Assembly (NCBI GenBank): GCA_025998875.1
Contig: AP024675.1
Location: forward strand, 629,589-693,588
Direction: 5' to 3'
Source of the DNA: Bacteroidota bacterium
GTDB taxonomy: Bacteria; Bacteroidota; Rhodothermia; JANXDC01
Length of the DNA stretch: 64,000 nt
Made by a program: the position numbers and the translations under genes. The notes under the pieces were generated by a model, which was not told the origin of the DNA, ran no database searches, and saw only the letters and a program-made list of their open reading frames with translations. Of the stretch, positions 11,414-61,237 are shown piece by piece. Each line of letters begins with the position of its first letter. The first letter of the stretch is position 1.

Positions 11414-11555
11414 ACCCGGTAATGCCCGTTGCGGGGTGAAATTACGCCACAACGGCCGCCGATAGCAAACCTCCCCCATTGCCCCGCGGCGATGGGGAGC
11501 CGGATATTTTGGAGGTGCAACTTTCGGGGCTTTTCTGCGAAAAACCTCTCTGTCC

Positions 11556-13622
11556 ATGCCGGTCCGCTACAGCCCCCATATCGGCTGGTTGCTGGGAGCC
11601 CTCCTGCTCAACGGGCTCGTCTTCGGGCTCGATGCCTTCCTGTTGGCCCTGCAGACCGGAGTGGAAACCGGTTTGCACGTTCCGGAGCTGGCCCTGTTGC
11701 GTGGGCTCGCCCTCGTGGCCAGCTATACGGCCCTGTTTGTGTACTTTCACCGACGCTACCAATCCTATCGGCCTGAGCCGCTGGAGGCGCTCTGGACGGT
11801 CCTGCTGGCCGGTCTGGGCCTTCTGCTACTGGCCTATGGCTTCGATGCCCTCTCGGGATCGGTCGAGCACCGGGGTGCGGCGGGCGGGATACGAGGCCTG
11901 CTGCGCGCCCGGGTGTTCGACCTCGGACAGGCGCTCTACACTTTCTGGACGCTGTTCAACCTCCGGGAGCTTGTGCTTTTTAAGCGCACCCTGCGGGCCG
12001 TGCGATACTGGAACGCCATGCTGGTGGTCTTCGCCCTGAGCGCCTTTAGCCTCTTCATGGCCTCCTACCAGCAGGCACCCCACCTGATCGCCCGGATCCT
12101 GGGCTTCGTCGCCATACTGCTCATGATCTGGTGCAGCATGCGCCTGGCCTGGATCGTGTACCTGCCTGCCCGGAAAAAACTGCTCGCGCTGCTGCTGGCG
12201 GGTCTAAACCTGCTCGTCATGGCCGTACTCCTGGGAAGCCAGCTGGGCTTCTGGCCCTCGGAGGAGGTCCGCCGGGAGGCGGGTTGGCTGTACGACTATC
12301 CGCTGGAGATGTTCGGCCTGCTCACGCTCGCCTTCGGTATCCTCTACAATAGCACGACCATCCTGAGCACGCTCTTTCATCTGCCCACTTCTTCCATTTT
12401 CGAACGCCGACAGACGGAGCTCTCCAGCCTGCACAACGTCAGCCGGCTGATCACCGAGGTGTTCGACCCGGAAAAGCTCGTGCGCACGGTCACCACCTCG
12501 GCCGCCGAGGCTGTCGGCGCCCGGGCTGCCTGGCTGGAGGTGCTCGACTGGCAGTCCGGAACCGTCCATCCCCGGCTGGCGGCCTGGTGTGGCATCGAAC
12601 CCGAACAGATCGCACACTGGGTGAACGGAGAGCTCTCCCGTATCGTGCTGGAAAACCGACAGACCGTTGTGCTGCACAGCCTGGAGGGCCGATCCGGATC
12701 CCTGGTGGTCGTGCCCCTCTATGCGCGGCAGGAGCCCATCGGGGTGCTCTATGTGCTCAAAGAGGTCTCCTTCGGCTTCGAGGCGGACGATGTGCTCCTG
12801 CTCCGTACGCTGGCCGACCAGGCGGCGCTCGTGCTGGAAAACGCCCGCCTTTTTACCCTCTCCCTGGAACGAGAAAGACTGAAACGGGAACTGGAGATCG
12901 CCCGACGCATCCAGCAACGCCTCCTGCCTCTGGAACTCCCCCGTTACCCCGGTCTGCACATCAGCGCCCGCGCCATGATGGCCGAAGAGGTCGGAGGCGA
13001 TTACTACGACTTTTACGCCCGCCCGGACGGACGGCTGGCCTTCGCCATCGCCGACGTTTCGGGCAAAGGCATCTCGGCCGCTTTTTACATGGCCGAGCTC
13101 AAAGGCATCTTTCAGGTGCTGGCCAGAGAAAGCCTGCGCCCCGTCGAACTGCTCACGCGCATCAACGAGGCCTTGAGCGCCCATCTGGAGAGCCGGCTTT
13201 TCGTCAGCATGCTCGTCGGATGGATGGATATGCGCACTTTCCGCGTCCACCTGGCCCGGGCCGGACACCCCCCCGCCCTGCTACGCCGGTCCAGTGGAGA
13301 AACCTGCTTTCTGCGCACCCGAGGTCCGGGACTGGGTCTGGTCCGGGATGGCCGATTCAGCAGTCTGGTCGAGGAGTGTGAGCTACAACTCGATCCGGGC
13401 GATCTTTTCCTGCTCTACACCGATGGCCTCATCGAGCTGCGCAACGAGCGAGGAGAGGAATTTGGCTATGAACGCCTGTTCGAGATCGTCCATCAGCACG
13501 GATCCTCGGCCCGGGAACTGGAACATGCCCTGCTGGAAGCCGTCGCCACCCACCGGGGAGCCAACCCGTGGCATGATGATCTAACGCTCGTTATCCTACA
13601 ACGCACCGGAGGGGAGCCATGA
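11556..13622 (+). CDS. membrane sensor PP2C-type phosphatase (RsbU/SpoIIE-like): polytopic N-terminus, GAF, PP2C
   Basis: 688 aa. About 250 N-terminal residues with 6-8 hydrophobic helices, a GAF-like middle region, and a C-terminal PP2C/SpoIIE domain (ARRIQQRLLP...VGGDYYDF...IADVSGKGISAAFYMAELKG...DGLIE). Confidence 0.8.
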   Translation: MPVRYSPHIGWLLGALLLNGLVFGLDAFLLALQTGVETGLHVPELALLRGLALVASYTALFVYFHRRYQSYRPEPLEALWTVLLAGLGLLLLAYGFDALSGSVEHRGAAGGIRGLLRARVFDLGQALYTFWTLFNLRELVLFKRTLRAVRYWNAMLVVFALSAFSLFMASYQQAPHLIARILGFVAILLMIWCSMRLAWIVYLPARKKLLALLLAGLNLLVMAVLLGSQLGFWPSEEVRREAGWLYDYPLEMFGLLTLAFGILYNSTTILSTLFHLPTSSIFERRQTELSSLHNVSRLITEVFDPEKLVRTVTTSAAEAVGARAAWLEVLDWQSGTVHPRLAAWCGIEPEQIAHWVNGELSRIVLENRQTVVLHSLEGRSGSLVVVPLYARQEPIGVLYVLKEVSFGFEADDVLLLRTLADQAALVLENARLFTLSLERERLKRELEIARRIQQRLLPLELPRYPGLHISARAMMAEEVGGDYYDFYARPDGRLAFAIADVSGKGISAAFYMAELKGIFQVLARESLRPVELLTRINEALSAHLESRLFVSMLVGWMDMRTFRVHLARAGHPPALLRRSSGETCFLRTRGPGLGLVRDGRFSSLVEECELQLDPGDLFLLYTDGLIELRNERGEEFGYERLFEIVHQHGSSARELEHALLEAVATHRGANPWHDDLTLVILQRTGGEP

Positions 13623-13990
13623 GCCAGTTTTCCGTCTCCTTTCGCCAGCACAATGGGGTGGATATCCTCGAGCTGCGAGGGGAACTCGATGCCCACACGG
13701 CCTCGGAGCTGGAGGCCGCCTTTGAGCGCCTGCTTCAGGAGGGTCGCTGTCGCGTCGTGATCAACTGCGCCGAGCTGAGCTACATCTCCAGCGCCGGCCT
13801 GGGGGTTTTCATGGCTTATGTGGAGGAGATGCGCAGCCGGGGCGGGGACATCAAGTTCTGCCACATGAGCCCGAAGATCTACAATATCTTCGACCTGCTG
13901 GGTTTTCCCCTGCTGTACGATATCCTGCCCACCGAAACCGAGGCGATCGCCCGCTTTAGCTCCCATGCCCAAACCTCGCAATCGGAGTGA
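13619..13990 (+). CDS. anti-sigma-factor antagonist (STAS domain, RsbV/SpoIIAA-like)
   Basis: 123 aa; ...GELDAHTASELEAAFERLL...INCAELSYISSAGLG is the STAS signature. Its ATG overlaps the upstream stop (ATGA). Confidence 0.85.
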   Translation: MSQFSVSFRQHNGVDILELRGELDAHTASELEAAFERLLQEGRCRVVINCAELSYISSAGLGVFMAYVEEMRSRGGDIKFCHMSPKIYNIFDLLGFPLLYDILPTETEAIARFSSHAQTSQSE

Positions 13991-14387
13991 GCTCACCATA
14001 CCGAGCCGTACAGAGGCCCTGGCCCGAGTACGCCGGTTTGTGCGTCGAAAAGCCCTGCGCATGGGCTTCACGGAAGAGGCCGTCGACCAGATCGTGATCG
14101 CCGTCGATGAGGCCTGCTCGAACATCATCCGGCACGCTTACGGGGGAGATCCCGCCCAGCAGATCCAGATCGTCGTCGACACCTATCCAGATCGGCTTGA
14201 GATCACGCTCTCCGACCAAGGACGGCGTTTTGATCCGAGCACATACCGGGAACCCGATCCGCAGAAGCTGGCCCGTTCCGGCCAGCGAGGGGGTCTGGGC
14301 CTGCTCCTCATGCGCCGCCTCATGGACGAGATCCAGTACGACTATCGGGATGAGTTCAACATTGTTCGGCTGATCAAATACCTATGA
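13965..14387 (+). CDS. anti-sigma regulatory factor Ser/Thr kinase (RsbW/SpoIIAB-like, HATPase_c)
   Basis: 140 aa; ...AVDEACSNIIRHAYGG...QGRRFDP...GGLGLLLMRRLMDE is GHKL kinase-like. It overlaps the STAS gene by 26 nt. Confidence 0.8.
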   Translation: MPKPRNRSELTIPSRTEALARVRRFVRRKALRMGFTEEAVDQIVIAVDEACSNIIRHAYGGDPAQQIQIVVDTYPDRLEITLSDQGRRFDPSTYREPDPQKLARSGQRGGLGLLLMRRLMDEIQYDYRDEFNIVRLIKYL

Positions 14388-16066
14388 CCCCACCCCTCTG
14401 GAACGTCCCTCCGCGCTACGATCTGGACTCCCTGCTGGAGACCAGTCGGCTTCTTGTGGGCTCGCTGGATGCGGACTTTATCCTGGACAACCTGCTCCGG
14501 ATCGCCATGGCCAAGGTGCTCACCTCCCGGGGGGTAATCCTGCTCCGCCAATCCGCAAACCGGTTCCGCGTGGCCCGTGCCCGAGGGATTCCGGACTGGA
14601 GTCCGGGAGCCGAACTTGAGCTGCCCGAAGCATGGCCCCCGAAGGATGGCCGCCTGCATCTGCCGGAATCCCTCCGAAAGCGGGGCCTTGTGTCCTGTTT
14701 TCTGCTGCGAAGCGGACAGGGGTTGCTCGGCCTGCTCGGCCTGGGACCCAAGGCGACCGGAGAACCCTACTCCAGCTATGAGGCCCAGTACATCGAGGCG
14801 CTAGCCAACATCACGGCCATGGGGCTGGAGAACGCCTTCGCCGTCAACCGGCTCCGAGAAATGAACCGGACCCTGGACCGACGCGTGCACGAACTGGAAA
14901 CGCTGCTGGATCTGAGTCGGGCGCTCAACAGCACCCTGGATCGAGAGGTCCTGCTCAAGCGGATCGGCTATACGCTCATGGGCCAGCTGCTGGTGGCCCG
15001 GTTTGCGATCCTGTTCCGCCCCCCGAATCGCCCGACAACCGTGTTGCTGGAACGCGGCCTTGCGCAAGCGCTCTCTGCCGAGCTCATCCCGGAAAGCTGG
15101 CTGCAGGAACCCCGTCCCCGCCGCATCGATCCCGACAGTGCGCTGGCCGCCTGGGGGCTGGAATGGATGGTGCCCATCTGGCTTTCCGATGGCCCGCGCG
15201 GGGTGCTCCTGTTGGGCAGTCGTGCCACGGGCGACCCGTTCGAGGAACAGGAGATCCGCTTTCTGGAGGCCGCCGCCCAGCTGGCCGGTATCGCGCTGGA
15301 GAACACCTATTTGTTTGAGGCGCACCTGGAAAAACAGCGCCTGGAGGAGGAACTGCACATCGCCCGACGCATTCAGCAGGGGCTGCTGCCGCGAACCATA
15401 CCCGATATACCGGGCTGCGAACTGGCCGCTTACTTGCACCCCGTGCGTCCGGTGGGGGGAGACTATTACGACGTACTGCCCCTTGAAGGCGGGCGATTCC
15501 TGCTGGCCGTCGCCGATGTGACAGGAAAAGGGGTGCCAGCCGCTCTGCTCATGGCCAACCTGCAGGCTATGTTGCATGTGCTGGCCCCCATTCCCATGTC
15601 TCTTGAAGAGGCCACAGCGCGCATCAACCGCATTATCTGCCACAATACGGATCCAGGTACCTTTATCACGTTCTTCTGGGGGATCCTCAATCCGGCTGAG
15701 CGCACCTTGCAGTATGTCAATGCCGGTCACGTCCCCCCGCTCCTTGTGCGCGCCAACGGCGACATCGAGGAACTCACCACCGGAGGCCTGCTCCTGGGCG
15801 TCATGGCGGAAACCGGAGCCTATGAGAGTCGAACCATCCAGCTACGTACGGGGGACACCCTGCTGCTCTACACCGACGGCCTTACGGAAACGTGCGATCC
15901 ACAGGGAAACTGCTACGATGAGGACCGCCTGCGGGCCACACTGTCCCGTCTGCGCCACGTACCCGCCTCCCTGCTGATCGAAGCGCTTCTCAGCGATGTG
16001 CGCGCATTCAGCGGAAAAGAAGATTTCGACGACGACCTGACCTTGCTTGTCCTGCGCCTTCTGTAG
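14384..16066 (+). CDS. GAF-domain PP2C-type phosphatase (RsbU/RsbP-like), soluble paralog
   Basis: 560 aa; the GAF regions and PP2C motifs (ARRIQQGLLP...VGGDYYDV...VADVTGKGVPAALLMANLQ...DGLTE) are paralogous to the 11556 gene. ATGA overlap with the upstream kinase. Confidence 0.8.
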   Translation: MTPPLWNVPPRYDLDSLLETSRLLVGSLDADFILDNLLRIAMAKVLTSRGVILLRQSANRFRVARARGIPDWSPGAELELPEAWPPKDGRLHLPESLRKRGLVSCFLLRSGQGLLGLLGLGPKATGEPYSSYEAQYIEALANITAMGLENAFAVNRLREMNRTLDRRVHELETLLDLSRALNSTLDREVLLKRIGYTLMGQLLVARFAILFRPPNRPTTVLLERGLAQALSAELIPESWLQEPRPRRIDPDSALAAWGLEWMVPIWLSDGPRGVLLLGSRATGDPFEEQEIRFLEAAAQLAGIALENTYLFEAHLEKQRLEEELHIARRIQQGLLPRTIPDIPGCELAAYLHPVRPVGGDYYDVLPLEGGRFLLAVADVTGKGVPAALLMANLQAMLHVLAPIPMSLEEATARINRIICHNTDPGTFITFFWGILNPAERTLQYVNAGHVPPLLVRANGDIEELTTGGLLLGVMAETGAYESRTIQLRTGDTLLLYTDGLTETCDPQGNCYDEDRLRATLSRLRHVPASLLIEALLSDVRAFSGKEDFDDDLTLLVLRLL

Positions 16067-17524: not shown

Positions 17525-18319
17525 CTATCGGCCGAATTCATAGGAGAGGTACAGGGCTACCCCTTGGGAACGAGCGTACTCGGGCACATCCCGCGAGGTA
17601 ACCATGTGCGCCACGATAACGGGGAACAGCTTCCGACTTCCAGCAGGATCGATCTCCGCCAAACGACGCTTGAGGAAACGGTCCACATCGTTTCTGGAAA
17701 GCTGCACCTTGCTTTCTCCCACGATGAGTACCGGCAACCCATCCCTGCGCGCCCGCGCCAGGATATTGACCTCTATTTCTTGCCCCTTGCGGTCGGTGAG
17801 GTAGTCTCGTCTCAGGGGCTCTTCGAGCACGATCCCGTAGTCCCGCTCCAGGAGGGCGGGCAGATACCGGTACGCCTCGTTCTCCAGCGTGTATCCAACC
17901 GTAGCGGCCAGACCACCGAGTTGCCGGTTGGTCTCATCGATACGCCGATTTGTCTGCTCCAGCCGGTGGGCAAGCCGTTGTAACTGCTCTTCCGTCTTCC
18001 GCTGCGCCTCGGCTAGGGCATCTACCCGAGCCGTGAGCAGCCGTTGTGCTTCGGCTAGCTCATCTACCCGGGCCGTGAGCAACCGTTGTGCTTCGGCTAG
18101 TTCATCTACCCGGGCTGTGAGCCTTTCAAGCTGCTCTTCCGTCTTCCGCTGCGCCTCGGCTAGGGCATGGAGGACTCCTTGCAGCGCTTCCCAGTCGGCT
18201 TTTGTGACCGTCCGGGCCAGCTCTTCATAGAACTGGCTCATCACCTCGGCCAGACGCCGGGCGCCCTCCTCTCCAAGGGGTTCGCGCAGGTAGTAGTATA
18301 TCTGCAGCGTATCGGGCAT
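17525..18319 (-). CDS. coiled-coil repeat protein with C-terminal PD-(D/E)XK-like region (DUF3782-like)
   Basis: Central LTARVDELAEAQRL 14-aa tandem repeats. C-terminus has D...EIE...ESK, resembling a restriction-endonuclease-like fold. The track start at 18325 is TTG; the ATG is at 18319. Confidence 0.5.
   Translation of the reverse strand: MPDTLQIYYYLREPLGEEGARRLAEVMSQFYEELARTVTKADWEALQGVLHALAEAQRKTEEQLERLTARVDELAEAQRLLTARVDELAEAQRLLTARVDALAEAQRKTEEQLQRLAHRLEQTNRRIDETNRQLGGLAATVGYTLENEAYRYLPALLERDYGIVLEEPLRRDYLTDRKGQEIEVNILARARRDGLPVLIVGESKVQLSRNDVDRFLKRRLAEIDPAGSRKLFPVIVAHMVTSRDVPEYARSQGVALYLSYEFGR
17981..18170. repeat. intragenic tandem repeat: about 3 copies of a 42-bp unit, flanked by a duplicated 38-bp segment
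   Basis: Units CCGTTGTGCTTCGGCTAG(C/T)TCATCTACCCGGGC(C/T)GTGAGC(A/C)(A/T) at 18041-18082 and 18083-18124, plus a degenerate copy at 18002-18040. GCTGCTCTTCCGTCTTCCGCTGCGCCTCGGCTAGGGCAT is repeated at about 17984 and about 18131. Confidence 0.85.
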
Positions 18320-18340
18320 GATCAAAAATTATAAACGCAA

Positions 18341-18362: not shown

Positions 18363-18367
18363 CTCGG

Positions 18368-18440
18368 TGGACAGGGAGGGAGTCGAACCCCCGACACGAG
18401 GATTTTCAGTCCTCTGCTCTACCGCCTGAGCTACCTGTCC
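18368..18440 (-). tRNA. tRNA-Phe (anticodon GAA)
   Basis: Hand-folded cloverleaf GGACAGG-TA-GCTC...GAGGA-CTGAAAA-TCCTC...GGGGG-TTCGACT-CCCTC-CCTGTCC-A, 73 nt, CCA not encoded. Confidence 0.85.
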
Positions 18441-52388: not shown

Positions 52389-52425
52389 AAAAAAGCGGAT
52401 GAGCGCCGCGCTCATCCGCTTTTTT
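52389..52425. terminator. bidirectional intrinsic terminator (tRNA-Glu/murA on plus; PfPDO-like operon on minus)
   Basis: A6 run, then a 12-bp perfect stem AGCGGATGAGCG-CCG-CGCTCATCCGCT, then a T5 run. Confidence 0.8.
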
Positions 52426-52434
52426 ACTTTGCAT

Positions 52435-53076
52435 TCAGGCTACCGCTCGCTCGATCGCTTCCAGCAGATAAGACTCCGGAACGGCGCCTTCGATGTGCTC
52501 GCGGTCGTTAATTACCGTCTTGGGCACGCCATAGACCTGATATCGGCTGGCCAGATGGGGAAACTCGATGGCCTCTACCATAGAGGCCTGGATGTTCGGA
52601 TTCAGATAGGCGAAGCGGAAAGCGCTCACCACCGCCCGCGGACAATACGGACACGTAGGGGTGACAAATACCTGTAGGTTCACCGGTTTCTGGATCCCGC
52701 GCACCCGTTCGACGATATCCTCGGGCAGATGCGTGTTTCCCGTGGATACAAGCCGGATAGCTTCCAGCAGGCTGGCAAACTCGTATCCCGAGGGAATCCC
52801 GTAGAACCGAATCCCGTAATCGCTTTCCCCCATCACCACGGTGGCCGGTATCTTGTCGATCCCGTAGGAGTTGGCCCGCTGGCGATCGAGCATGAAGTTG
52901 TAGACCTCCAGGGAGATCTGATCAGAAAGTGCGGCGACCTCTTCGAGTAGCTGGCGGGTCTCCCGGCAGTATTCGCACTCCAGCTCCTGGGTGAAGTAGA
53001 CCAGTCGCACCGGGTTTACCAGTCCGGACAGCTCTTGACGTACCAGTTCGCGCTCCCTTTCGCGTAGCAGGGTCAT
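52435..53076 (-). CDS. protein disulfide oxidoreductase, glutaredoxin-like with two thioredoxin folds (PfPDO-like)
   Basis: Two CxxC motifs (CEYC and CPYC) spaced as in Pyrococcus PDO; 213 aa. ATG verified at 53076. Confidence 0.7.
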   Translation of the reverse strand: MTLLRERERELVRQELSGLVNPVRLVYFTQELECEYCRETRQLLEEVAALSDQISLEVYNFMLDRQRANSYGIDKIPATVVMGESDYGIRFYGIPSGYEFASLLEAIRLVSTGNTHLPEDIVERVRGIQKPVNLQVFVTPTCPYCPRAVVSAFRFAYLNPNIQASMVEAIEFPHLASRYQVYGVPKTVINDREHIEGAVPESYLLEAIERAVA

Positions 53077-53093
53077 CGGGGTATCTCCTCTTG

Positions 53094-53444
53094 TTAGTAG
53101 CGTCCATTCTCTACAGGCAATCCGGCCCGACGCCAGGCCAGAATCCCTCCACGGATGTTGTAGACGTTCCGGTAGCCCAGTTGCTGGGCCACCGCCTCGG
53201 CGACCATGGCGGATCGGTTTCCGGAACGACACAGAAACAGGAGCTCCGCCTCCTTATCCGGAGGCAGCCGGGATATATCGAATGCGCTCAGAGGCAGGTG
53301 TAGCGCTCCGGGCACGGCGCCCTGCTCGTGCAACTCCTCCTTTTCCCGCACATCCACCAGCCAGGCGCCTCGCTGAAAACGCGCATAAGCCTCCTGCGGA
53401 GAGAGCTCTTCATACCCCTTTGGGGTCCAGAACCACCCACTCAT
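53094..53444 (-). CDS. single-domain rhodanese-like sulfurtransferase
   Basis: 116 aa; active-site loop CRSGNRS. Confidence 0.8.
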   Translation of the reverse strand: MSGWFWTPKGYEELSPQEAYARFQRGAWLVDVREKEELHEQGAVPGALHLPLSAFDISRLPPDKEAELLFLCRSGNRSAMVAEAVAQQLGYRNVYNIRGGILAWRRAGLPVENGRY

Positions 53445-53995
53445 CTGTATCCTCCTGTGTTGGGTTTACTCTTCCCCTGTTGCCGGGCCAGCAGGCGGGC
53501 CACGGCGCGCTCCAGATAGGGCAGCGCCGACACATCGCGCATCCCGGCCCTGCGGGCCTCGGCCAGCGCCTGCTCGGCAGACAGCCCCTTAAAACGCAGA
53601 TAGCCGTAATAAAGCTGTGCGGACCGATTGCCGGATCGGCAGTGCATAAAGATGGGTCCTGGGCTCTCCTCCAGGGCGCGCACAAAACGCGCCAGCACCT
53701 CCGGGGTAATCGTCTCCGGCCCTCCTACGGGGATGTTCACGTAGCGCAGCCCGAGCCGACGGGCCACCTCGGCCTCATCAAAAGGACGCCGCTCCTCGGG
53801 AAGGCGATTGTCGATCACGGTCCGGTATCCCGCCCTGCTCAGGGCGCGCAACTGCGCCTCCGTGGGCTGCCCACCGCAGGCCAGCCCGGGGCGCAGCAGC
53901 ACCCCATTGGGGATATCCTGAGGCAAGCCAGAATCCTGGACCCCTGTTCCAGCACCGAACACGAACATCAGAATACCGATGAACCACGCGCGCAT
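53441..53995 (-). CDS. DUF442/phosphatase-like (CX5R) sulfur-metabolism accessory protein, putatively exported
   Basis: Signal-peptide-like N-terminus MRAWFIGILMFVFGAGTG, then HCRSGNRS in a PTP-like fold. This domain is commonly fused or adjacent to persulfide dioxygenases (Blh). Confidence 0.55.
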   Translation of the reverse strand: MRAWFIGILMFVFGAGTGVQDSGLPQDIPNGVLLRPGLACGGQPTEAQLRALSRAGYRTVIDNRLPEERRPFDEAEVARRLGLRYVNIPVGGPETITPEVLARFVRALEESPGPIFMHCRSGNRSAQLYYGYLRFKGLSAEQALAEARRAGMRDVSALPYLERAVARLLARQQGKSKPNTGGYR

Positions 53996-54118
53996 AGGGT
54001 TTACCCCGTGTACTTGTGCCCTTTCGATGCAACCGGGTAGCGAAGATGTCATCGGGTTGTGTACTCCGGGGGGAATACGTATTTTCTCCGCGTTTGCCTA
54101 CCTCCTGGGTGGAAGGCT

Positions 54119-54415
54119 ATGAAGCAAAAAGCAGAACAGCTGACCCTTTCGCACATCGAGGATCGAAAGGAAATTCTGCGTCGCCTGGCCCGGATCGAGG
54201 GCCAGATCCGCGCTCTACAGCGTCTGATCCAGGAAGAGGCCGACTGCGCCACAATCATACAGCAGATGATGGCCGCCCGCCAGGCGGTGCATAAAACCTT
54301 TGCCGAGCTGATGGCCCGCCTGCTCACGCGGGAGTGCCTGCTAACGGAACACCTCTCCGAAGAAGAACGCCAGAACCTGGGCCATCTGGCCGATCTGATT
54401 CGCCGTTATCTGTAA
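54119..54415 (+). CDS. CsoR/CstR-family (DUF156) transcriptional repressor with two Cys
   Basis: 98 aa; ...RLARIEGQIRALQRLIQEEADCATIIQQMMAARQAVHKTFAELMARLLTRECLL... (Cys in EADC and RECL). ATG verified at 54119. Confidence 0.7.
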   Translation: MKQKAEQLTLSHIEDRKEILRRLARIEGQIRALQRLIQEEADCATIIQQMMAARQAVHKTFAELMARLLTRECLLTEHLSEEERQNLGHLADLIRRYL

Positions 54416-54463
54416 ACGCCGGACAGGTGTCCGACCCGAAAATACCCGCAGCGGCTCGGATGT

Positions 54464-54492
54464 CTTGACTTTTTAGTCGGACCTCTATACTA
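54464..54492 (+). promoter_or_regulatory. sigma70-like promoter plus GGGGGTAT-containing pseudo-palindrome upstream of the rhodanese-MBL gene (coordinates +/-1)
   Basis: TTGACT, 15-17 nt, TATACT/TACTAT. The ATACTATAGGGGGTAT overlap resembles CsoR-type operators. An upstream inverted repeat CGGACAGGTGTCCG lies at about 54420-54434. Confidence 0.4.
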
Positions 54493-54524
54493 TAGGGGGT
54501 ATCCGGTCAGGAGGTCTTCCACCT

Positions 54525-55709
54525 ATGGAATGGAAAACTCAGTTCACCCCCGAGGAAGTGGCCGAGCTGCTGGAACGAGGCGTTGGCTTCGGCGTGCTGG
54601 ACGTACGCAATGAAGAGGAATTCCGGCGCTGGCGCCTGGAGGGGCCAAACACCCCCCAAACCCTGCATATCCCCTACTTTGAGGCGCTGGAGGATGAGGA
54701 GGCCTTCGTCTCTCGCGTAGAGGCCGAGCTGGGTCGGGGGCCCATCCTAGCCATCTGCGCCAAGGGAGGATCATCGGACTGGATCGCCCAGGAGATCCTG
54801 CGGCCCCGGGGCTTTCAGGTCGCGAACATGATCGGGGGCATGGAGGCCTGGGGATCTAGCTATCGCATTCGCCTGCTTCCGGAATCCAAACAGGATACGG
54901 TGCGCATCTGGCAGCTGGATCGCTTCGGCCGGGGGTGCCTGCATTACGTAGTTGCCTCGGAAGGCGAAGCGATCCTTATCGATCCCCCTCGGCATATCGA
55001 GCGCGTACTGGAGCTCCTGTCGCGGGAAGGGCTACAGATCCGGGCCATTCTGGACACGCACGCCCATGCCGATCACATCTCCGGAGGCCCCGCGCTGGCG
55101 GAACGGACCGGCGCTCCTTACTATCTGCATCCCTACGACGGCATCCACCCTATCGACGTGCTTCCGGCTCAGATCCCGTTTGCCTTTCTGCAAGAGGGCA
55201 TGCGCTTTTCGGTGGGCTCGGCCGCCCTAGACGTTCTGCATATACCCGGCCACACGCTAGGCAATACGGCTTTTCTTCTGCAGGGGCAGAAGCGCTACCT
55301 CTTTACGGGGGATAGCCTCTTCATCCAGAGCGTTGCGCGGCCTGATCTGGGCGGTCGGGGGGAGGCGTGGGCGCCTCTGCATTTCCGATCCCTGCGTCGG
55401 CTGCTTCATCTTCCGGCGGATACGATCGTCCTGCCGGGCCATTACGCCTCGGCCGCGCGGGAGCAGCGCGCCGATGGCCTCTTTGCCGCCCCGCTGGGCG
55501 AGTTGCTCAGGAGCAACCCCGATCTGGCTCTGCAAGAGGAGGAAGCCTTTGTTTCCTATATCCTGGCCCACCTTCCGGAGTTTCCCCCGCAGTACGTGGA
55601 TATCAAACGGGTAAACGCCGGGCTCCTGCGACTGGATGAGGAGGGCCTCAACGAACTGGAGCTGGGCAAAAACGTCTGCGCGCTCTCGGGTGCTTATACA
55701 ACATCATAA
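54525..55709 (+). CDS. rhodanese-MBL fusion, persulfide dioxygenase-like (CstB/Blh-like)
   Basis: N-terminal rhodanese with CAKGGSS loop; C-terminal metallo-beta-lactamase fold with HAHADHISGG (HxHxDH). Confidence 0.75.
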   Translation: MEWKTQFTPEEVAELLERGVGFGVLDVRNEEEFRRWRLEGPNTPQTLHIPYFEALEDEEAFVSRVEAELGRGPILAICAKGGSSDWIAQEILRPRGFQVANMIGGMEAWGSSYRIRLLPESKQDTVRIWQLDRFGRGCLHYVVASEGEAILIDPPRHIERVLELLSREGLQIRAILDTHAHADHISGGPALAERTGAPYYLHPYDGIHPIDVLPAQIPFAFLQEGMRFSVGSAALDVLHIPGHTLGNTAFLLQGQKRYLFTGDSLFIQSVARPDLGGRGEAWAPLHFRSLRRLLHLPADTIVLPGHYASAAREQRADGLFAAPLGELLRSNPDLALQEEEAFVSYILAHLPEFPPQYVDIKRVNAGLLRLDEEGLNELELGKNVCALSGAYTTS

Positions 55710-55722
55710 AGGAGGCTCCGCC

Positions 55723-55983
55723 ATGGGGGAGATCGTCGTAGCCAGGGAACTCGACGTCCGCGGCCTACAGTGTCCCATGCCCCTGGTCAACGCACACCGG
55801 GCGATCAAGCAGATCGCCGTGGGCGAGGTGCTCAAAGTGCTGGCCACGGATCGGGGCTCGCTTTTGGACTTTAAGGGCTGGGCGGAAACAGACGACTCCG
55901 TCGAGTTGCTCCAGCAGGAAGAATATACCGACGAGCAAGGACGACGGGTGTACGTGCACTACCTGCGACGGGTAGAACCCTGA
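55723..55983 (+). CDS. tusA: TusA/SirA-like sulfur carrier
   Basis: 86 aa; LQCPMP (CPxP) motif. GGAGG Shine-Dalgarno; ATG verified at 55723. Confidence 0.8.
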   Translation: MGEIVVARELDVRGLQCPMPLVNAHRAIKQIAVGEVLKVLATDRGSLLDFKGWAETDDSVELLQQEEYTDEQGRRVYVHYLRRVEP

Positions 55984-56007
55984 ATAACCAGGGAGGAGGA
56001 GAGCATC

Positions 56008-56592
56008 ATGGCCGAAGCCATTGCCCAGGATCTGGAGACCCGCCTCCAGGAGCTCACCCAACGCCTGGAAGCGCTGGAGAGCCGCTATGAAAAAGACATG
56101 CGCCGCATCCAGCGGCACCTACCGGAGAACCGGGTGGCGATCATCTGCTTCAGCGGTAATCTGGACAAGGCCATGGCCGCGCTGATCATCGCCACCGGCG
56201 CGGCCTCAATGGGCATGCAGGTCTCGATTTTCTTCACCTTCTGGGGCTTGAGCGTGATCAAAAATGGCGCCCAGCTGCGGGGCAAATCCTTCATGGAAAA
56301 GCTCTTCAGCATCATGCTCCCGGAGAACATGCGCGAGCTCGGCCCCTCTCAGATGAACTTCGGCGGCATTGGCGCGCGTATGATGCGGGCCATTATGCGC
56401 AAAAAGCAGGTTCAGTCCCTCGAGGAGCTCTTCCAGCTGGCCCGTGAGCTGGGAGTTCGCCTGGTGGCCTGCACGATGAGCATGGATGTGATGGGCATCC
56501 GGGCCGAGGAACTGCTTCCCGGCATGGAGCTGGGTGGGGTGGCCACCTACCTGGCCGATGCCTCCAAATCCAAAGTCACGCTGTTTATCTAA
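56008..56592 (+). CDS. DsrE/DsrF-family (DsrE3/COG2210-like) sulfur carrier with N-terminal coiled-coil extension
   Basis: ...RVAIICFSGNLDKAMAALIIATGAASMGMQVSIFFTFWGL...LVACTMSMDVMG (conserved Cys). Confidence 0.65.
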   Translation: MAEAIAQDLETRLQELTQRLEALESRYEKDMRRIQRHLPENRVAIICFSGNLDKAMAALIIATGAASMGMQVSIFFTFWGLSVIKNGAQLRGKSFMEKLFSIMLPENMRELGPSQMNFGGIGARMMRAIMRKKQVQSLEELFQLARELGVRLVACTMSMDVMGIRAEELLPGMELGGVATYLADASKSKVTLFI

Positions 56593-56643
56593 CAGCGCGA
56601 CCCATTCGGACCGCTCACAGAGCCTCAGGAGAGGAGGGCGGGG

Positions 56644-58317
56644 ATGAACTATGGTTTCATCATCGATAACCGTAAGTGTATCGGCTGTCATGCTTGCACG
56701 GTGGCCTGCAAGGCGGAGCACGAAATCCCGCTCGGCGTCAACCGCACCTGGGTCAAATACGTCGAAAAGGGGCGCTATCCGAACACGCGGCGCTTGTTTG
56801 CCGTGCACCGGTGCAACCACTGCGCCGAGGCCCCGTGTGTGGAGATCTGCCCCGTAGAGGCGCTCTTTGTGCGCCCCGACGGGATCGTGGATTTCGATAA
56901 CGCCCGCTGCATCGGGTGCAAGTCCTGCATGCAGGCCTGTCCTTATGATGCGCTCTATATCGATCCGGAGACGCACACGGCGGCCAAGTGCAATTTCTGC
57001 GCGCATCGTATTGACCTGGGTCTGGAACCGGCCTGTGTGGTGGTCTGCCCGGAACATGCCATCATCGCCGGGGATCTGGACGATCCCCACTCGGAGATCA
57101 GCCAGCTTCTGGCCCGCGAACAGGTCCAGGTGCGCAAACCGGAAAAGGGCACCCTGCCCAAGCTCTGGTACATCGATGGGGACGAGGCCTCCCTAGATCC
57201 CCTGGCCACCCGGCGAGAGACGGAATACTTCTGGAGCGAACAGGCCACCGGGGTGGGGCATTTTGCCCGCTATGCGGAGATGCGGCAGGCGAACCGGGAT
57301 CCGGATCAGCTCCTCTATCAGCTGGCCGTCTTGCCCTCGGACTGGGCCCGTGCTGAGGCCCGGGTAGCCGAGGAGCTACGCCGTGAAGACGGACAGCGGG
57401 CCATGGGCGATCCCCTGCTCCGGATGCAGGAGGCCGTCTACGGGCAGAGCCCGGCCAGGCGCACCTATGACACCCCCTCGAAAGGGGTGCTCTGGGGATG
57501 GGAGGTTTCCGGATACATCTGGACAAAGGCCATTGCCGCGGGTGCGTTTCTGGTGCCGTTTCTTCTGCAGGATCTGGGCCTTGTCCGACTCGGCCCCGTG
57601 GCGGAATGGGTCGCCTGGGGGGTTGCCCTCCTGTTTTTGTTGCTGACCGGACTGCTATTAATCAAAGACCTGGACCGACCCGATCGGTTTCTGTACGTAT
57701 TGCTTCGCCCTCAGAAGCGTTCCTGGCTCGTCAAGGGCGCCTATATCCTTACCGGCTACGGAGCGGCCCTGGCCCTGTGGGGGGTATCACGCTGGCTGGA
57801 AAGCCCCGAACTGGGTTGGCTGGCCCGCCTGACGGGTTATCTGGGCGCCCTGGGCGCGGCCACATATACGGCCTTTTTGTTTGCTCAGGCCAAGGGGCGG
57901 GACTTCTGGCAGAGCCCCATGCTTGCCCCGCACATGCTTCTGCACGCCCTGCTGGCCGGAGGATCGGTGGGACTGCTCCTGGCCTGGGGTTTCGGCCTAG
58001 ATGCAACCCCCTTCGGCTGGGTTACCGCCTTCTCGGGGGCAGCAGGGCTCCTGATAGTAGCCATAGAGCTGGCTATGCCGCATCCCACACGGGATGCTCA
58101 TCTGGTGGCCCAGATCATCATGCGCGGCTACTATCGCCGGCTGTTCTGGCATACCGTGCTCTGGGGACACCTGCTGCCCGTAGTCGGGCTTTTCCTCGGA
58201 CTCTGGCTCGGTTGGCCTGTGGCCCTGTTGGCCCTGCTGGGCCTGATACTGCTTGTGGCCGTGCTGCCCATCGAGCACCTCTGGGTGCGCGTGCCTCAGC
58301 TCATCCCCCTGGCCTGA
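56644..58317 (+). CDS. fusion of a 4x[4Fe-4S] ferredoxin-type subunit (PsrB/SoeB-like) with an NrfD/PsrC-like polytopic membrane anchor
   Basis: N-terminal about 200 aa with four Cys clusters (CIGCHACTVAC, CNHCAEAPCVEICP, CIGCKSCMQACP, CNFCAHRIDLGLEPACVVVCP). C-terminal about 310 aa with about 8 TM helices. A single uninterrupted frame with a GGAGG Shine-Dalgarno. Confidence 0.7.
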   Translation: MNYGFIIDNRKCIGCHACTVACKAEHEIPLGVNRTWVKYVEKGRYPNTRRLFAVHRCNHCAEAPCVEICPVEALFVRPDGIVDFDNARCIGCKSCMQACPYDALYIDPETHTAAKCNFCAHRIDLGLEPACVVVCPEHAIIAGDLDDPHSEISQLLAREQVQVRKPEKGTLPKLWYIDGDEASLDPLATRRETEYFWSEQATGVGHFARYAEMRQANRDPDQLLYQLAVLPSDWARAEARVAEELRREDGQRAMGDPLLRMQEAVYGQSPARRTYDTPSKGVLWGWEVSGYIWTKAIAAGAFLVPFLLQDLGLVRLGPVAEWVAWGVALLFLLLTGLLLIKDLDRPDRFLYVLLRPQKRSWLVKGAYILTGYGAALALWGVSRWLESPELGWLARLTGYLGALGAATYTAFLFAQAKGRDFWQSPMLAPHMLLHALLAGGSVGLLLAWGFGLDATPFGWVTAFSGAAGLLIVAIELAMPHPTRDAHLVAQIIMRGYYRRLFWHTVLWGHLLPVVGLFLGLWLGWPVALLALLGLILLVAVLPIEHLWVRVPQLIPLA

Positions 58318-58336
58318 GAGAAGGAGGTATTCGCCT

Positions 58337-61225
58337 ATGGCCAAATCCTGGATAGAGCGCGCCGCCGAAGCTCTGCGCCTGATCCCCCGAATCGACTCCA
58401 ACGGAAGTACCCCCCTGCCCCGACTTGAGCCCGGTTCGGGGTTGCGTTCCTACCCCCCGAGGGAGCGCTGGAATCACTGGGAAGAATATGACCCTCGGGC
58501 CTGGCCCCGGAAGCGCAAACGGGCCTACATGCTTGTGCCCACCATCTGTTTTAACTGCGAAGCCGGATGCGGCCTGTTGGCCTATATTGACAAGGAAACC
58601 GGACAGGTGCGCAAACTGGAGGGCAATCCCTACCACCCCGGTTCGCGCGGCCGTAACTGCGCAAAAGGGCCGGCTACGATCAACCAACTCACCGATCCGG
58701 ATCGTATCCTCTATCCTCTGCGCCGCAAAGGCGAGCGAGGATCCGGTCAATGGGAGCGCGTATCCTGGGAAGAAGCCCTGGAGGATATCGCCGCCCGGAT
58801 CCGCCGCGCGCTCGAAGAGGGACGCAACAACGAAATCGTCTACCATGTGGGCCGACCGGGCCACGAGGGATACATGGAACGCGTGCTGGGGGCCTGGAAC
58901 GTAGACGGACATAACAGCCATACGAACATCTGCTCTTCCGGGGCCCGCTTTGGATACGCCATCTGGCAGGGATACGATCGGCCCTCCCCGGATCACGCCA
59001 ATGCCCGCTTTATCCTGCTGCTGAGTTCCCATCTGGAGACGGGCCATTACTTCAACCCCCACGCCCAGCGCATCATCGAGGGCATGATGCGCGGAGCCAA
59101 GCTGGCGGTTATGGACCCCCGGCTCTCGAACACAGCCAGTATGGCCGACTACTGGCTGCCGACCTATCCGGGCTCCGAAGCCGCTGTACTGCTGGCCATG
59201 GCGCGCATCCTGCTCCTGGAGGGTCGATACGATCGGGAATTCCTGGAGCACTGGGTCAACTGGCACGATTACCTCAACGCCCGACATCCCCAGCGACCGC
59301 GCACCTTCGAGGCCTTCATCGAAGCGCTCCTGGAAGAATATGCCCTCTTCACCCCGGAATTCGCCGCCCGGGAGGCCCAGATCGATCCTGAGCTCATCAT
59401 CGCCGTAGCCCGGGAGATCGGCGAGGCCGGATCCCGCTTTGCCACCCACAACTGGCGCTCGGCCTCCAGCGGCAACCTGGGTGGCTGGACTGTGGCGCGC
59501 GCGCTGCATTTTCTCAACGTCCTTACCGGATCGGTCGGCACCTATGGTGGCACCAGCCCGAGCGCCTGGAACAAGTTCAAGCCCATCGTGCCGCATGCCC
59601 CGCCGGCCACCCGATTCTGGAACGAGCTCCATTTCCCCCTGGAGTATCCGCTGGCCCACTACGAGATGAGCTTCCTACTGCCACACTTCCTCAAGGAGGG
59701 GCGCGGCCGGCTGGAGGTTTACTTTACGCGCGTCTTCAATCCCGTATGGACGTATCCGGACGGCTTTTCCTGGATCGAGGTGTTGCGGGATGAATCCAAA
59801 ATCGGCCTGCATGTAGCCCTGACCCCCACGTGGAACGAGACGGCCTACTGGGCCGACTACGTCCTGCCCATGGGACATGCCTCCGAACGACACGATATCG
59901 TCAGCTACGAAACCCATTCCGGCATCTGGATAGGCTTTCGCCAGCCCGTACTGCGCGAAGCGCTTCGCCGGCAGGGCAAACCGGTCCGCTTCACCTACGA
60001 AGCCAACCCCGGAGAAGTCTGGGAAGAGGACGAATTCTGGATTGAGCTCTCCTGGCGTATCGATCCCGAAGGCCGTCTGGGCATCCGGAAGCACTTCGAA
60101 TCCCCCTATCGTGCCGGGGAGAAGATGACTATTGAAGAATACTACCAGTACGTCTTCGAGCACGTGCCCGGCCTTCCGGAAGCGGCCGCCCGGGAAGGGC
60201 TTACCCCCCTGGAATACATGCGCCGCTACGGAGCCTTCGAGGTGAAAAAGCACGTCTACGAGAAACACCTCGATCCGGTGCCCGAAGAGCTGGCCCGCCA
60301 GGCGGAAATCGATCCGGAAACCCATATCGCCTACGTACATACGGACAGCGGGGAGCGACAGGCCATCGGGGTATACTACCAGGGCCAGATCCGCACGGGA
60401 TTTCCTACCCCCACGCGCAAACAGGAGTTCTACTCGCAGACCATGGTCGACTGGGGATGGCCAGAATACGCCATCCCGACCTATATCAAAAGTCATGTGC
60501 ATCCGGAACGGATTAACCGGGACAACAACGAGTTCGTCCTGGTGCCCACGTTCCGTTTGCCCACACTCATCCACACCCGCAGCGGTAACGCCAAGTACCT
60601 GGTGGAGATCTCCAACCGAAACCCGATCTGGATACACACCCGCGATGCGGAGCGCATCGGGGTGAAAACGGGAGACCTGGTGCGAGTCACCACGGAGATC
60701 GGCTACTTCGTCGATCGCGTCTGGGTCACGGAGGCGATTAAACCCGGCGTGGTGGCCTGCTCGCACCATATCGGGCGCTGGCGACGGGAACAGGATCCGC
60801 CGGGCAACCGATGGGCCACCAGCACCGTGCGGATCGAGGAAATCGCGCCCGGTCAGTGGCGCATGCAACAGGTCCGGGGGGTGGAGCCGTTTGTCAGTTC
60901 CGACCCCGACTCCAGGCGCATCTTCTGGCGGGATGGCGGAGTGCATCAGAACATCACGCACCCCGTACACCCGGATCCCATTTCGGGCATGCACTGTTGG
61001 CACCAGTGGTGCCGCATCGAGAAGGCCAGACCGGAGGACCGCTACGGAGACGTGTTCGTGGACACGAACAAATCTTTTGCCGTCTACCGGCAGTGGCTGG
61101 CCATGACGCGCCCGGGTCCGGGTCCCGGAGGACTGCGCCGGCCCCTGTGGCTGAACCGGCCGTTTCGGCCCGCCCCAGAGACCTTCTATGTAACCTCAGA
61201 GGCGCAATCACCGCCAGAGAGCTGA
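58337..61225 (+). CDS. molybdopterin (DMSO-reductase-family) oxidoreductase catalytic subunit without Tat signal (SoeA-like)
   Basis: 962 aa; N-terminal CFNCEAGCG...C [4Fe-4S] motif and the molybdopterin dinucleotide-binding domain pattern. No RRxFLK motif. Strong GGAGG Shine-Dalgarno; ATG verified at 58337. Confidence 0.75.
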   Translation: MAKSWIERAAEALRLIPRIDSNGSTPLPRLEPGSGLRSYPPRERWNHWEEYDPRAWPRKRKRAYMLVPTICFNCEAGCGLLAYIDKETGQVRKLEGNPYHPGSRGRNCAKGPATINQLTDPDRILYPLRRKGERGSGQWERVSWEEALEDIAARIRRALEEGRNNEIVYHVGRPGHEGYMERVLGAWNVDGHNSHTNICSSGARFGYAIWQGYDRPSPDHANARFILLLSSHLETGHYFNPHAQRIIEGMMRGAKLAVMDPRLSNTASMADYWLPTYPGSEAAVLLAMARILLLEGRYDREFLEHWVNWHDYLNARHPQRPRTFEAFIEALLEEYALFTPEFAAREAQIDPELIIAVAREIGEAGSRFATHNWRSASSGNLGGWTVARALHFLNVLTGSVGTYGGTSPSAWNKFKPIVPHAPPATRFWNELHFPLEYPLAHYEMSFLLPHFLKEGRGRLEVYFTRVFNPVWTYPDGFSWIEVLRDESKIGLHVALTPTWNETAYWADYVLPMGHASERHDIVSYETHSGIWIGFRQPVLREALRRQGKPVRFTYEANPGEVWEEDEFWIELSWRIDPEGRLGIRKHFESPYRAGEKMTIEEYYQYVFEHVPGLPEAAAREGLTPLEYMRRYGAFEVKKHVYEKHLDPVPEELARQAEIDPETHIAYVHTDSGERQAIGVYYQGQIRTGFPTPTRKQEFYSQTMVDWGWPEYAIPTYIKSHVHPERINRDNNEFVLVPTFRLPTLIHTRSGNAKYLVEISNRNPIWIHTRDAERIGVKTGDLVRVTTEIGYFVDRVWVTEAIKPGVVACSHHIGRWRREQDPPGNRWATSTVRIEEIAPGQWRMQQVRGVEPFVSSDPDSRRIFWRDGGVHQNITHPVHPDPISGMHCWHQWCRIEKARPEDRYGDVFVDTNKSFAVYRQWLAMTRPGPGPGGLRRPLWLNRPFRPAPETFYVTSEAQSPPES

Positions 61226-61237
61226 GCGCTGGCCGCG

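Follow-up and report, generated by a model that had tools for sequence, protein, structure and literature searches.

A four-gene RsbU/RsbV/RsbW-type partner-switching operon with two PP2C phosphatases and no linked sigma factor gene in a thermophilic Bacteroidota bacterium

What does a partner switch control when no sigma factor is encoded beside it? Outside two-component systems, few bacterial signalling devices are as common as partner-switching modules, and a locus at positions 11556–16066 of a 64,000-nucleotide stretch of contig AP024675.1 (hereafter the window), which comes from the metagenome-assembled genome (MAG) KatS3mg041 of an uncultured thermophilic "Bacteroidota bacterium", raises this question in a clear form. 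The locus is a module of the well-known RsbU/RsbV/RsbW partner-switching kind, in which a membrane-embedded PP2C phosphatase, a STAS protein, a GHKL kinase, and a second, soluble PP2C phosphatase are encoded in succession. All the parts that a partner switch needs are present, namely a STAS protein with a phospho-serine, a kinase with its GHKL boxes, phosphatases with the PP2C aspartates, and linkage of the genes on one strand, and we consider it highly probable that kinase, STAS protein, and phosphatases form the core of a phospho-switch. Whether the locus is also a self-contained operon of this type whose output, probably a sigma factor that the kinase holds, is encoded in trans, is a question on which we see the chances as evenly balanced, and the evidence on either side is set out below.

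Composition of the Module

The initial annotation of this DNA had described two phosphatases, a STAS protein, and a kinase at this locus, and both the open reading frames (ORFs) and their Pfam domains agree with that description. The features on which the following discussion draws are these:

11556–13622, + strand: membrane phosphatase gene, ORF of 688 residues
11556–12380, + strand: sensor-like domain of the membrane phosphatase, with eight transmembrane (TM) helices and short loops (hereafter the 8-TM domain)
13619–13990, + strand: STAS protein gene, ORF of 123 residues
13965–14387, + strand: GHKL kinase gene, ORF of 140 residues
14384–16066, + strand: soluble phosphatase gene, ORF of 560 residues
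16078–16635, + strand: NUDIX hydrolase gene, ORF of 185 residues
11414–11555 (142 nucleotides): divergent intergenic region between thrS and the membrane phosphatase gene, presumed promoter region of the operon (from gene calls in identical contigs and the sequence)
Membrane phosphatase, by residue: 8-TM domain, 9–275; signalling helix, 279–300; GAF domain, about 304–429; long helix, 410–456; PP2C/SpoIIE domain, about 460–685
Soluble phosphatase, by residue: first GAF-like domain, about 12–160; coiled linker; second GAF domain, about 165–310; PP2C domain, about 318–559

The genes are tightly packed, and the overlaps reported at the outset can be read directly from the sequence: the stop codon of the membrane phosphatase gene and the start codon of the STAS gene share the ATGA at 13619–13622, the stop codon of the kinase gene and the start codon of the soluble phosphatase gene share a second ATGA at 14384–14387, and the kinase ATG at 13965 lies 26 nucleotides upstream of the STAS stop codon (13988–13990). 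This last overlap does not depend on the choice of start codon, because a start at the next in-frame codon would cost the kinase a conserved N-terminal segment. The NUDIX gene comes directly after the module on the same strand, as had been noted, with an 11-nucleotide gap to the soluble phosphatase gene. Public assemblies contain identical contigs with identical gene calls for the locus, and the five proteins of the region are deposited as BCX00527–BCX00531. The module is bounded on one side by the divergent thrS-infC-rpmI-rplT-pheST genes, with the called start of thrS at about 11413 on the minus strand (gene calls of the identical contigs), and on the other side by the convergent prmC. The operon promoter presumably lies within 11414–11555. 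We note that neither this 142-nucleotide region nor the interior of the operon yielded a consensus sigma-70 promoter above chance, that no terminator match above chance was found inside the operon and no Rfam element in the module region, and that GC content is flat over this region.

The STAS protein consists of a STAS domain alone (Pfam STAS, E 1e-18), resembles RsbV and SpoIIAA, and passes the NCBIfam model for anti-sigma antagonists (TIGR00377; 74 bits against a cut-off of 53.45). Its predicted phospho-acceptor is Ser58, encoded by the AGC at 13790–13792, which lies in the loop Y55-I-S-S58-A-G-L-G-V63 and aligns with the phospho-serine Ser58 of SpoIIAA. Across 76 STAS orthologues, the loop YISSAGLGV shows little or no variation and S58 none, and the conserved positions of the protein are those of the canonical kinase and phosphatase contact motifs, that is, the LDxHT loop, the phospho-loop, the GG turn, and FDxxG. 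The kinase is, by sequence, an RsbW-like GHKL serine kinase (Pfam HATPase_c_2, E 3.7e-33), with an N box (E49/N53/H57), a G1 box (D84-x-G86), and a G2 box (G109-G110-x-G112), all three of which are conserved in 75 orthologues. Its best match in the PDB is B. subtilis RsbW (6m36, E 1.3e-18), to which the N, G1, and G2 boxes all align.

The two phosphatases are paralogous, as had been claimed, with about 36% identity over their GAF and PP2C domains (E about 1e-42). In the membrane phosphatase, Pfam recognizes a GAF domain (E 3.5e-9) and a SpoIIE/PP2C domain (E 2.6e-49), the latter with the metal-binding residues D482, D485, D500, D623, D674, and D675; D482, D485, and D500 are invariant and the other three at least 90% conserved among 112 homologues, and all six are invariant in a set of 19 sequences. 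The soluble phosphatase likewise carries Pfam GAF and SpoIIE/PP2C domains (E 9e-51 for the latter), its PP2C domain aligns to the PDB structures of Rv1364c and RssB, and its metal-binding residues are D360, D363, D378, D498, D550, and D551, with the motifs GGDYYD, DVxGKG, TDG, and DD conserved among 41 orthologues. The possibility raised initially, that the PP2C domains could be pseudo-phosphatases, can therefore be set aside: because all metal-binding aspartates are conserved, neither protein is a pseudo-enzyme.

The soluble phosphatase had been described as a soluble GAF-PP2C protein. Its solubility (no TM segment was found by hydropathy) and its PP2C domain stand; the single GAF domain does not, as an internal repeat and a weak GAF_3 match on residues 32–150 point to two GAF-like domains and thus to a GAF-GAF-PP2C architecture. 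A separate observation concerns residues 164–211 of this protein, covering the linker and the start of the second GAF domain, which give a strong local match (E 1e-16) to the N-terminus of the NCBIfam DgcA model; the sequence likeness suggests that the soluble phosphatase and the diguanylate cyclase DgcA may share a coiled-coil/GAF input cassette with different outputs. No GGDEF gene was found among the flanking gene families listed in our survey of related loci, described below.

The N-terminal part of the membrane phosphatase is the least familiar element of the module. Hydropathy analysis of this polytopic protein gives six strong peaks, and an AlphaFold model based on 112 homologues (mean predicted local distance difference test score, pLDDT, of 92) resolves these into eight TM helices joined by short loops, with both termini cytoplasmic according to the positive-inside rule. 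By both approaches, the outside loops do not exceed about 20 residues and a periplasmic domain is absent, which makes the initial suggestion that this enzyme senses envelope signals doubtful, and argues instead for a signal that arises within the membrane or reflects the state of the membrane. No Pfam family matches residues 1–300 at E ≤ 1, and no solved structure matches the 8-TM domain (best Foldseek hit at E 0.066 and TM-score 0.2), the PDB fold matches of the protein being confined to its PP2C part (RssB, Rv1364c, SiaA, and SpoIIE). In profile searches, the 8-TM domain was represented by 611 sequences among 1.84 billion, of which the complete ones comprise 660–770 residues, and it was found solely at the N-terminus of GAF and SpoIIE proteins or in fragments. 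Fusion to other outputs was considered and ruled out, as GAF/PP2C partners or fragments alone turned up. The best-conserved residues of the domain lie at its cytoplasmic face beside the signalling helix (R150, W199, I200, L203, and K208), as does the equally well conserved F274-x-L276-P277-T278 ("FHLPT") motif. Given these exclusive partners and this conservation of the cytoplasmic face, the 8-TM domain looks like an intramembrane sensor or anchor dedicated to this phosphatase family.

Conservation across Relatives

The module is not peculiar to this window but is a conserved operon in the sampled Rhodothermales, Ignavibacteriota, Cytophagales, and other Bacteroidota. We obtained 80 loci from a profile scan with one genome per species, which covered Rhodothermales, Ignavibacteriota, and MAGs of other Bacteroidota, and about 70 of these show the membrane PP2C, STAS, and kinase genes in this order, wherever the contig reaches far enough. 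So many recurrences of one arrangement, in independent loci of other species, indicate that it is not due to chance. One of the loci with the triad (L070) comes from a Rhodothermus MAG. The triad also occurs in a cultured member of the Cytophagales, Roseivirga sp. BDSF3-8, and in other Cytophagales, and a sister genome (67% identity) carries the same five genes, including the NUDIX gene, with the same stop/start overlaps. Mean pairwise identities among orthologues amount to 60–67% for the STAS protein, 45–50% for the kinase, 40–46% for the membrane phosphatase, and 47% for the soluble phosphatase, with 29% for the TM domain alone.

About 45 loci, most of them from Ignavibacteria-like and unclassified Bacteroidota, have the soluble phosphatase gene in fourth place. 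In Rhodothermales loci it is not adjacent to the triad; full-length orthologues with 40–45% identity nevertheless exist in this order, and in both of the Rhodothermales genomes that were checked it is solitary, with no STAS or kinase gene within ±7 kb. These two GAF-GAF-PP2C orthologues (L092, 7001–8716, and L093, 7001–8677) lie in unrelated contexts. In L093, a gene for a 279-residue sigma-70-family protein (regions 1.2, 2, 3, and 4) lies 5.5 kb from the phosphatase gene on the other strand, a proximity that is probably coincidental.

Five Ignavibacteria-like loci contain, about 3 kb upstream of the module and on the opposite strand, a second STAS-only gene whose product is 27–30% identical to the STAS protein of the module (L008, 4655–4933; L011, 4639–4923; L028, 4284–4607; L034, 4137–4460; and L072, 4091–4393; all on the minus strand). 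In L011 this gene lies directly downstream of secF. Its product could be a second substrate of the module or part of an unrelated system.

Output of the Switch and Comparison with Known Systems

In the mechanism that we propose, the GHKL kinase would phosphorylate Ser58 of the STAS protein and thereby switch it off, and either PP2C phosphatase would strip this phosphate, the 8-TM/GAF enzyme in response to an intramembrane or membrane-state cue and the GAF-GAF enzyme in response to a cytoplasmic ligand. Once dephosphorylated, the STAS protein would bind the kinase, and this binding would free whatever other partner the kinase holds, most likely a factor of the sigma-70 family whose gene lies elsewhere in the genome. 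The action of both phosphatases on a single STAS protein we infer from the linkage of the genes, and we likewise infer the direction of phosphorylation, what the signals are, and above all what the output is.

Much of this mechanism has precedents in well-studied systems. In B. subtilis, the two phosphatases RsbU and RsbP act on one RsbV, and the RsbU/RsbP-RsbV-RsbW-sigmaB switch shares with our module its PP2C phosphatases, a STAS-only antagonist with a phospho-serine, a small GHKL kinase, and the provision of two sensory phosphatases; the structure matches are in line with this, RsbW being the best match of the kinase, and SpoIIAA and RsbV being matched by the STAS protein. Unlike the sigmaB switch, however, the module operon contains no sigma gene and has no stressosome, and its inputs are 8-TM plus GAF and GAF-GAF, compared to an RsbT-binding N domain and a PAS domain in B. 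subtilis. As to the stressosome (RsbR-RsbS-RsbT), no RsbR-like gene was found near the module, either in the gene lists of the window or in the 80 loci, and profile comparisons favor RsbV and RsbW as the relatives of the two small proteins: the kinase family profile gives 99 bits on RsbW and 22 bits on RsbT, and the STAS family profile 54 bits on RsbV and 9 bits on RsbS. SpoIIE, a polytopic-membrane PP2C phosphatase that acts on a STAS protein, offers a further parallel, in that the SpoIIE-SpoIIAA-SpoIIAB system combines such a phosphatase with a small GHKL kinase, which phosphorylates the STAS protein at a position equivalent to Ser58. The membrane domains are nevertheless unrelated, the gene for sigmaF is absent here, and the source taxon does not sporulate. 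The membrane phosphatase reaches 34 bits on the SpoIIE model TIGR02865, which spans the 10-TM and regulatory domains and has a cut-off of 490.8, with the PP2C part alone aligned. On the equivalog model for SiaA of the Pseudomonas SiaABCD system, for which the cut-off is 700 bits, the scores are 41–44 bits.

The likeness to orphan Rsb systems such as that of Chlamydia, which had been proposed at the start, proves apt. The RsbU-RsbV1/RsbV2-RsbW system of Chlamydia trachomatis likewise has a membrane-anchored PP2C phosphatase, and the YISSAGL of our STAS protein fits the phospho-loop motif of the Chlamydiota, Y[M/I/L]SSAG[I/V/M/L] (PMC11619594), so that the two are likened here by motif and architecture. 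The chlamydial RsbW is reported to act on a sigma factor encoded elsewhere, and the target proposed for C. trachomatis, whose module has no dedicated alternative sigma factor assigned to it, is the housekeeping sigma-66 (PMC4552016, PMC11619594). The systems differ in that the working model for Chlamydia has RsbU respond to periplasmic alpha-ketoglutarate (PMC11619594), whereas in our module the outside loops are short and a GAF domain serves as the cytoplasmic sensor, and in that two STAS proteins go with one phosphatase in Chlamydia, compared to one STAS protein and two phosphatases in a single operon here.

Phosphatase, STAS protein, and kinase with no linked sigma gene are also found in the Vibrio SypE/SypA, Nostoc HmpU/V/W, Rhodobacter RbaV/W, and Bordetella BtrU/V/W modules (PMC8256260). 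These, however, sit in or near the loci that they control (syp, hmp, or the type III secretion system locus), while the neighbors of our module are variable housekeeping genes. Within the Bacteroidota, the marine flavobacterial single-cell genome MS024-2A has been annotated with an rsbW-rsbV-rsbU cluster that includes a putative transmembrane RsbU (PMC2668756); by this description it is alike in being an Rsb cluster with no adjacent dedicated sigma gene, and it differs in being associated with a PAS/adenylate-cyclase gene. This annotation was the sole mention that our literature search returned, and no study of the module in Bacteroidota, Ignavibacteria, or Rhodothermus was found. Sigma-less systems, membrane PP2C phosphatases, and two-phosphatase inputs thus all have precedents, and since the architecture is what a specialist would expect of an Rsb-type system, we regard the finding as a useful annotation rather than a surprise. 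What is new is an uncharacterized family with an 8-TM domain that matches neither Pfam nor a solved structure, and identification of its target would clarify how abundant environmental bacteria let the state of the membrane and a cytoplasmic ligand act on gene expression or physiology.

Several observations weigh against a sigma factor held by the kinase as the output. That no sigma gene lies in cis had been stated for the window, and this extends further: no sigma-70-family Pfam domain was found in the genes of the window or of about 10 kb on its left side, and phmmer searches with RpoE and SigB (both confirmed by Pfam as sigma factors) gave no match at E ≤ 1 against 1040 ORFs flanking the 80 loci (±8 kb). 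A Pfam scan of 108 flanking families likewise placed no sigma family with at least two members among the top 25 families listed, where a single instance could hide. A sigma gene of the same operon immediately outside the window had also been envisaged; no such gene can belong to the operon, because divergent thrS and convergent prmC bound it. Canonical anti-sigma factors have the gene of their sigma partner next to their own, and its absence here therefore counts against this output. The kinase, moreover, falls below the cut-offs of the RsbW equivalog models (88.7 vs 145 bits for NF003144 and 84.2 vs 155 bits for TIGR01924), and should thus be called RsbW-like rather than an RsbW orthologue, and conservation among the four proteins is highest in the STAS protein rather than in the kinase, which fits a STAS protein that is the hub or output of the system. 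FliA was considered as a general target and rejected: Cytophagales glide and are not known to have flagella, and with the triad present in Roseivirga and other members of this group, FliA is unlikely to be the universal target.

The main rival reading takes up these points and holds that the STAS protein is itself the output, with the unphosphorylated form binding a target that is neither a sigma factor nor the kinase, such that the kinase acts as off-switch and the phosphatases as on-switches. The higher conservation of the STAS protein, the lack of a linked sigma gene in any of the 80 genomes, and the case that the Cytophagales make against FliA all speak for this, and several sigma-less systems are thought to operate in this way, SypA, HmpV, and RbaV having been proposed as outputs (PMC8256260). 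The conserved positions of the STAS protein, however, coincide with the canonical contact motifs described above, with no extra conserved patch evident, and no genome links a candidate target to the module, so that we hold this reading to be less likely than not. The search for a conserved neighbor that might be the output is relevant here: clustering of the 1040 flanking ORFs gave housekeeping and envelope genes alone, none of them universal (a TPR protein, MATE, UbiE, LeuS, SecF, LpxL, a heptosyltransferase, and AmiA-like, PrmA, and XerC-like proteins). Because the neighbors vary and are housekeeping genes, genomic context holds no clue to the output.

The output could also lie within the operon. 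The order STAS–kinase–PP2C is that of rsbS-rsbT-rsbU, a second PP2C gene is present in the operon as in the sigB operon of B. subtilis, the kinase and soluble phosphatase genes share an ATGA, and five related loci have another STAS-only gene at a distance of about 3 kb, all of which would suit an RsbS/RsbT/RsbU-like cascade in which the kinase activates the soluble GAF-GAF-PP2C phosphatase, this being the output with some other substrate, and in which the membrane phosphatase provides an RsbX-like reset. We consider such a cascade decidedly unlikely, however, as the profiles place the kinase far nearer to RsbW than to RsbT and the STAS protein far nearer to RsbV than to RsbS, an RsbR-like gene was not found, the soluble phosphatase bears GAF domains rather than the RsbT-binding N-terminal domain of RsbU, and it is unlinked and alone in the two Rhodothermales genomes checked. 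Even less can be said for the NUDIX hydrolase as the regulated output, for instance through control of nucleotide-sugar or alarmone hydrolysis by the kinase or the STAS protein, which we judge very improbable indeed. The short gap, the shared strand, the lack of a detected intervening terminator, and the retention of the linkage in the sister species (67% identical) would all be in keeping with it, and the gene is probably co-transcribed with the module here; yet none of the 80 other loci has a NUDIX homologue within ±8 kb, and the protein (Pfam NUDIX, E 6e-16) resembles housekeeping NudE and ADP-ribose pyrophosphatases in both Pfam and NCBIfam. Because its linkage is confined to this genus-level clade, the NUDIX protein is unlikely to be the output or a part of the module, and its gene is probably a lineage-specific passenger outside the system. 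Returning to a trans-encoded output, a broader proposal would be that the module is an ancient system of Bacteroidota and their relatives, in which a phosphatase with an 8-TM intramembrane sensor not described before and the GAF-GAF phosphatase set the phosphorylation of the highly conserved STAS protein, which would in turn govern how much of the short primary sigma factor of Bacteroidota is available, in the way proposed for sigma-66 in Chlamydia, or would act on a non-sigma target. We regard this as speculative and rather unlikely as a whole; if true, it would make the module a global growth or membrane-state switch and not a classical alternative-sigma stress response.

Surroundings of the Module

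Outside the window to its left, at a distance given as about 2.5–10 kb (L089, 14073–21635) or as about 12–20 kb, lie genes for a HisKA kinase, CheW, and a methyl-accepting chemotaxis protein, together with flgB, flgC, fliE, fliF, and fliG. Given these flagellar and chemotaxis genes, the thermophilic Bacteroidota-like source organism is probably flagellated and chemotactic.

To the right of the module, between prmC and a tRNA-Phe gene, an ORF of 264–266 residues (17525–18325, minus strand) carries a tandem repeat at 18009–18122, which comprises 2.7 copies of a 42-nucleotide unit with 91% matches and encodes the coiled-coil repeat LTARVDELAEAQRL. The sole Pfam match of this ORF is a weak one to CEP89, and it is absent from the sister genome (L090), which is otherwise syntenic. 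The tRNA-Phe (GAA) gene itself (18366–18440, minus strand) lies between this ORF and a gene for a thioredoxin-like protein. Further along the window, at about 52400–63000, a sulfur-metabolism cluster encodes a thioredoxin-like protein, a rhodanese, a BLH phosphatase, a CsoR-like repressor, a rhodanese/metallo-beta-lactamase protein, TusA, DsrE, NrfD/4Fe-4S proteins, a molybdopterin oxidoreductase, and a SulP transporter with a STAS domain of its own.

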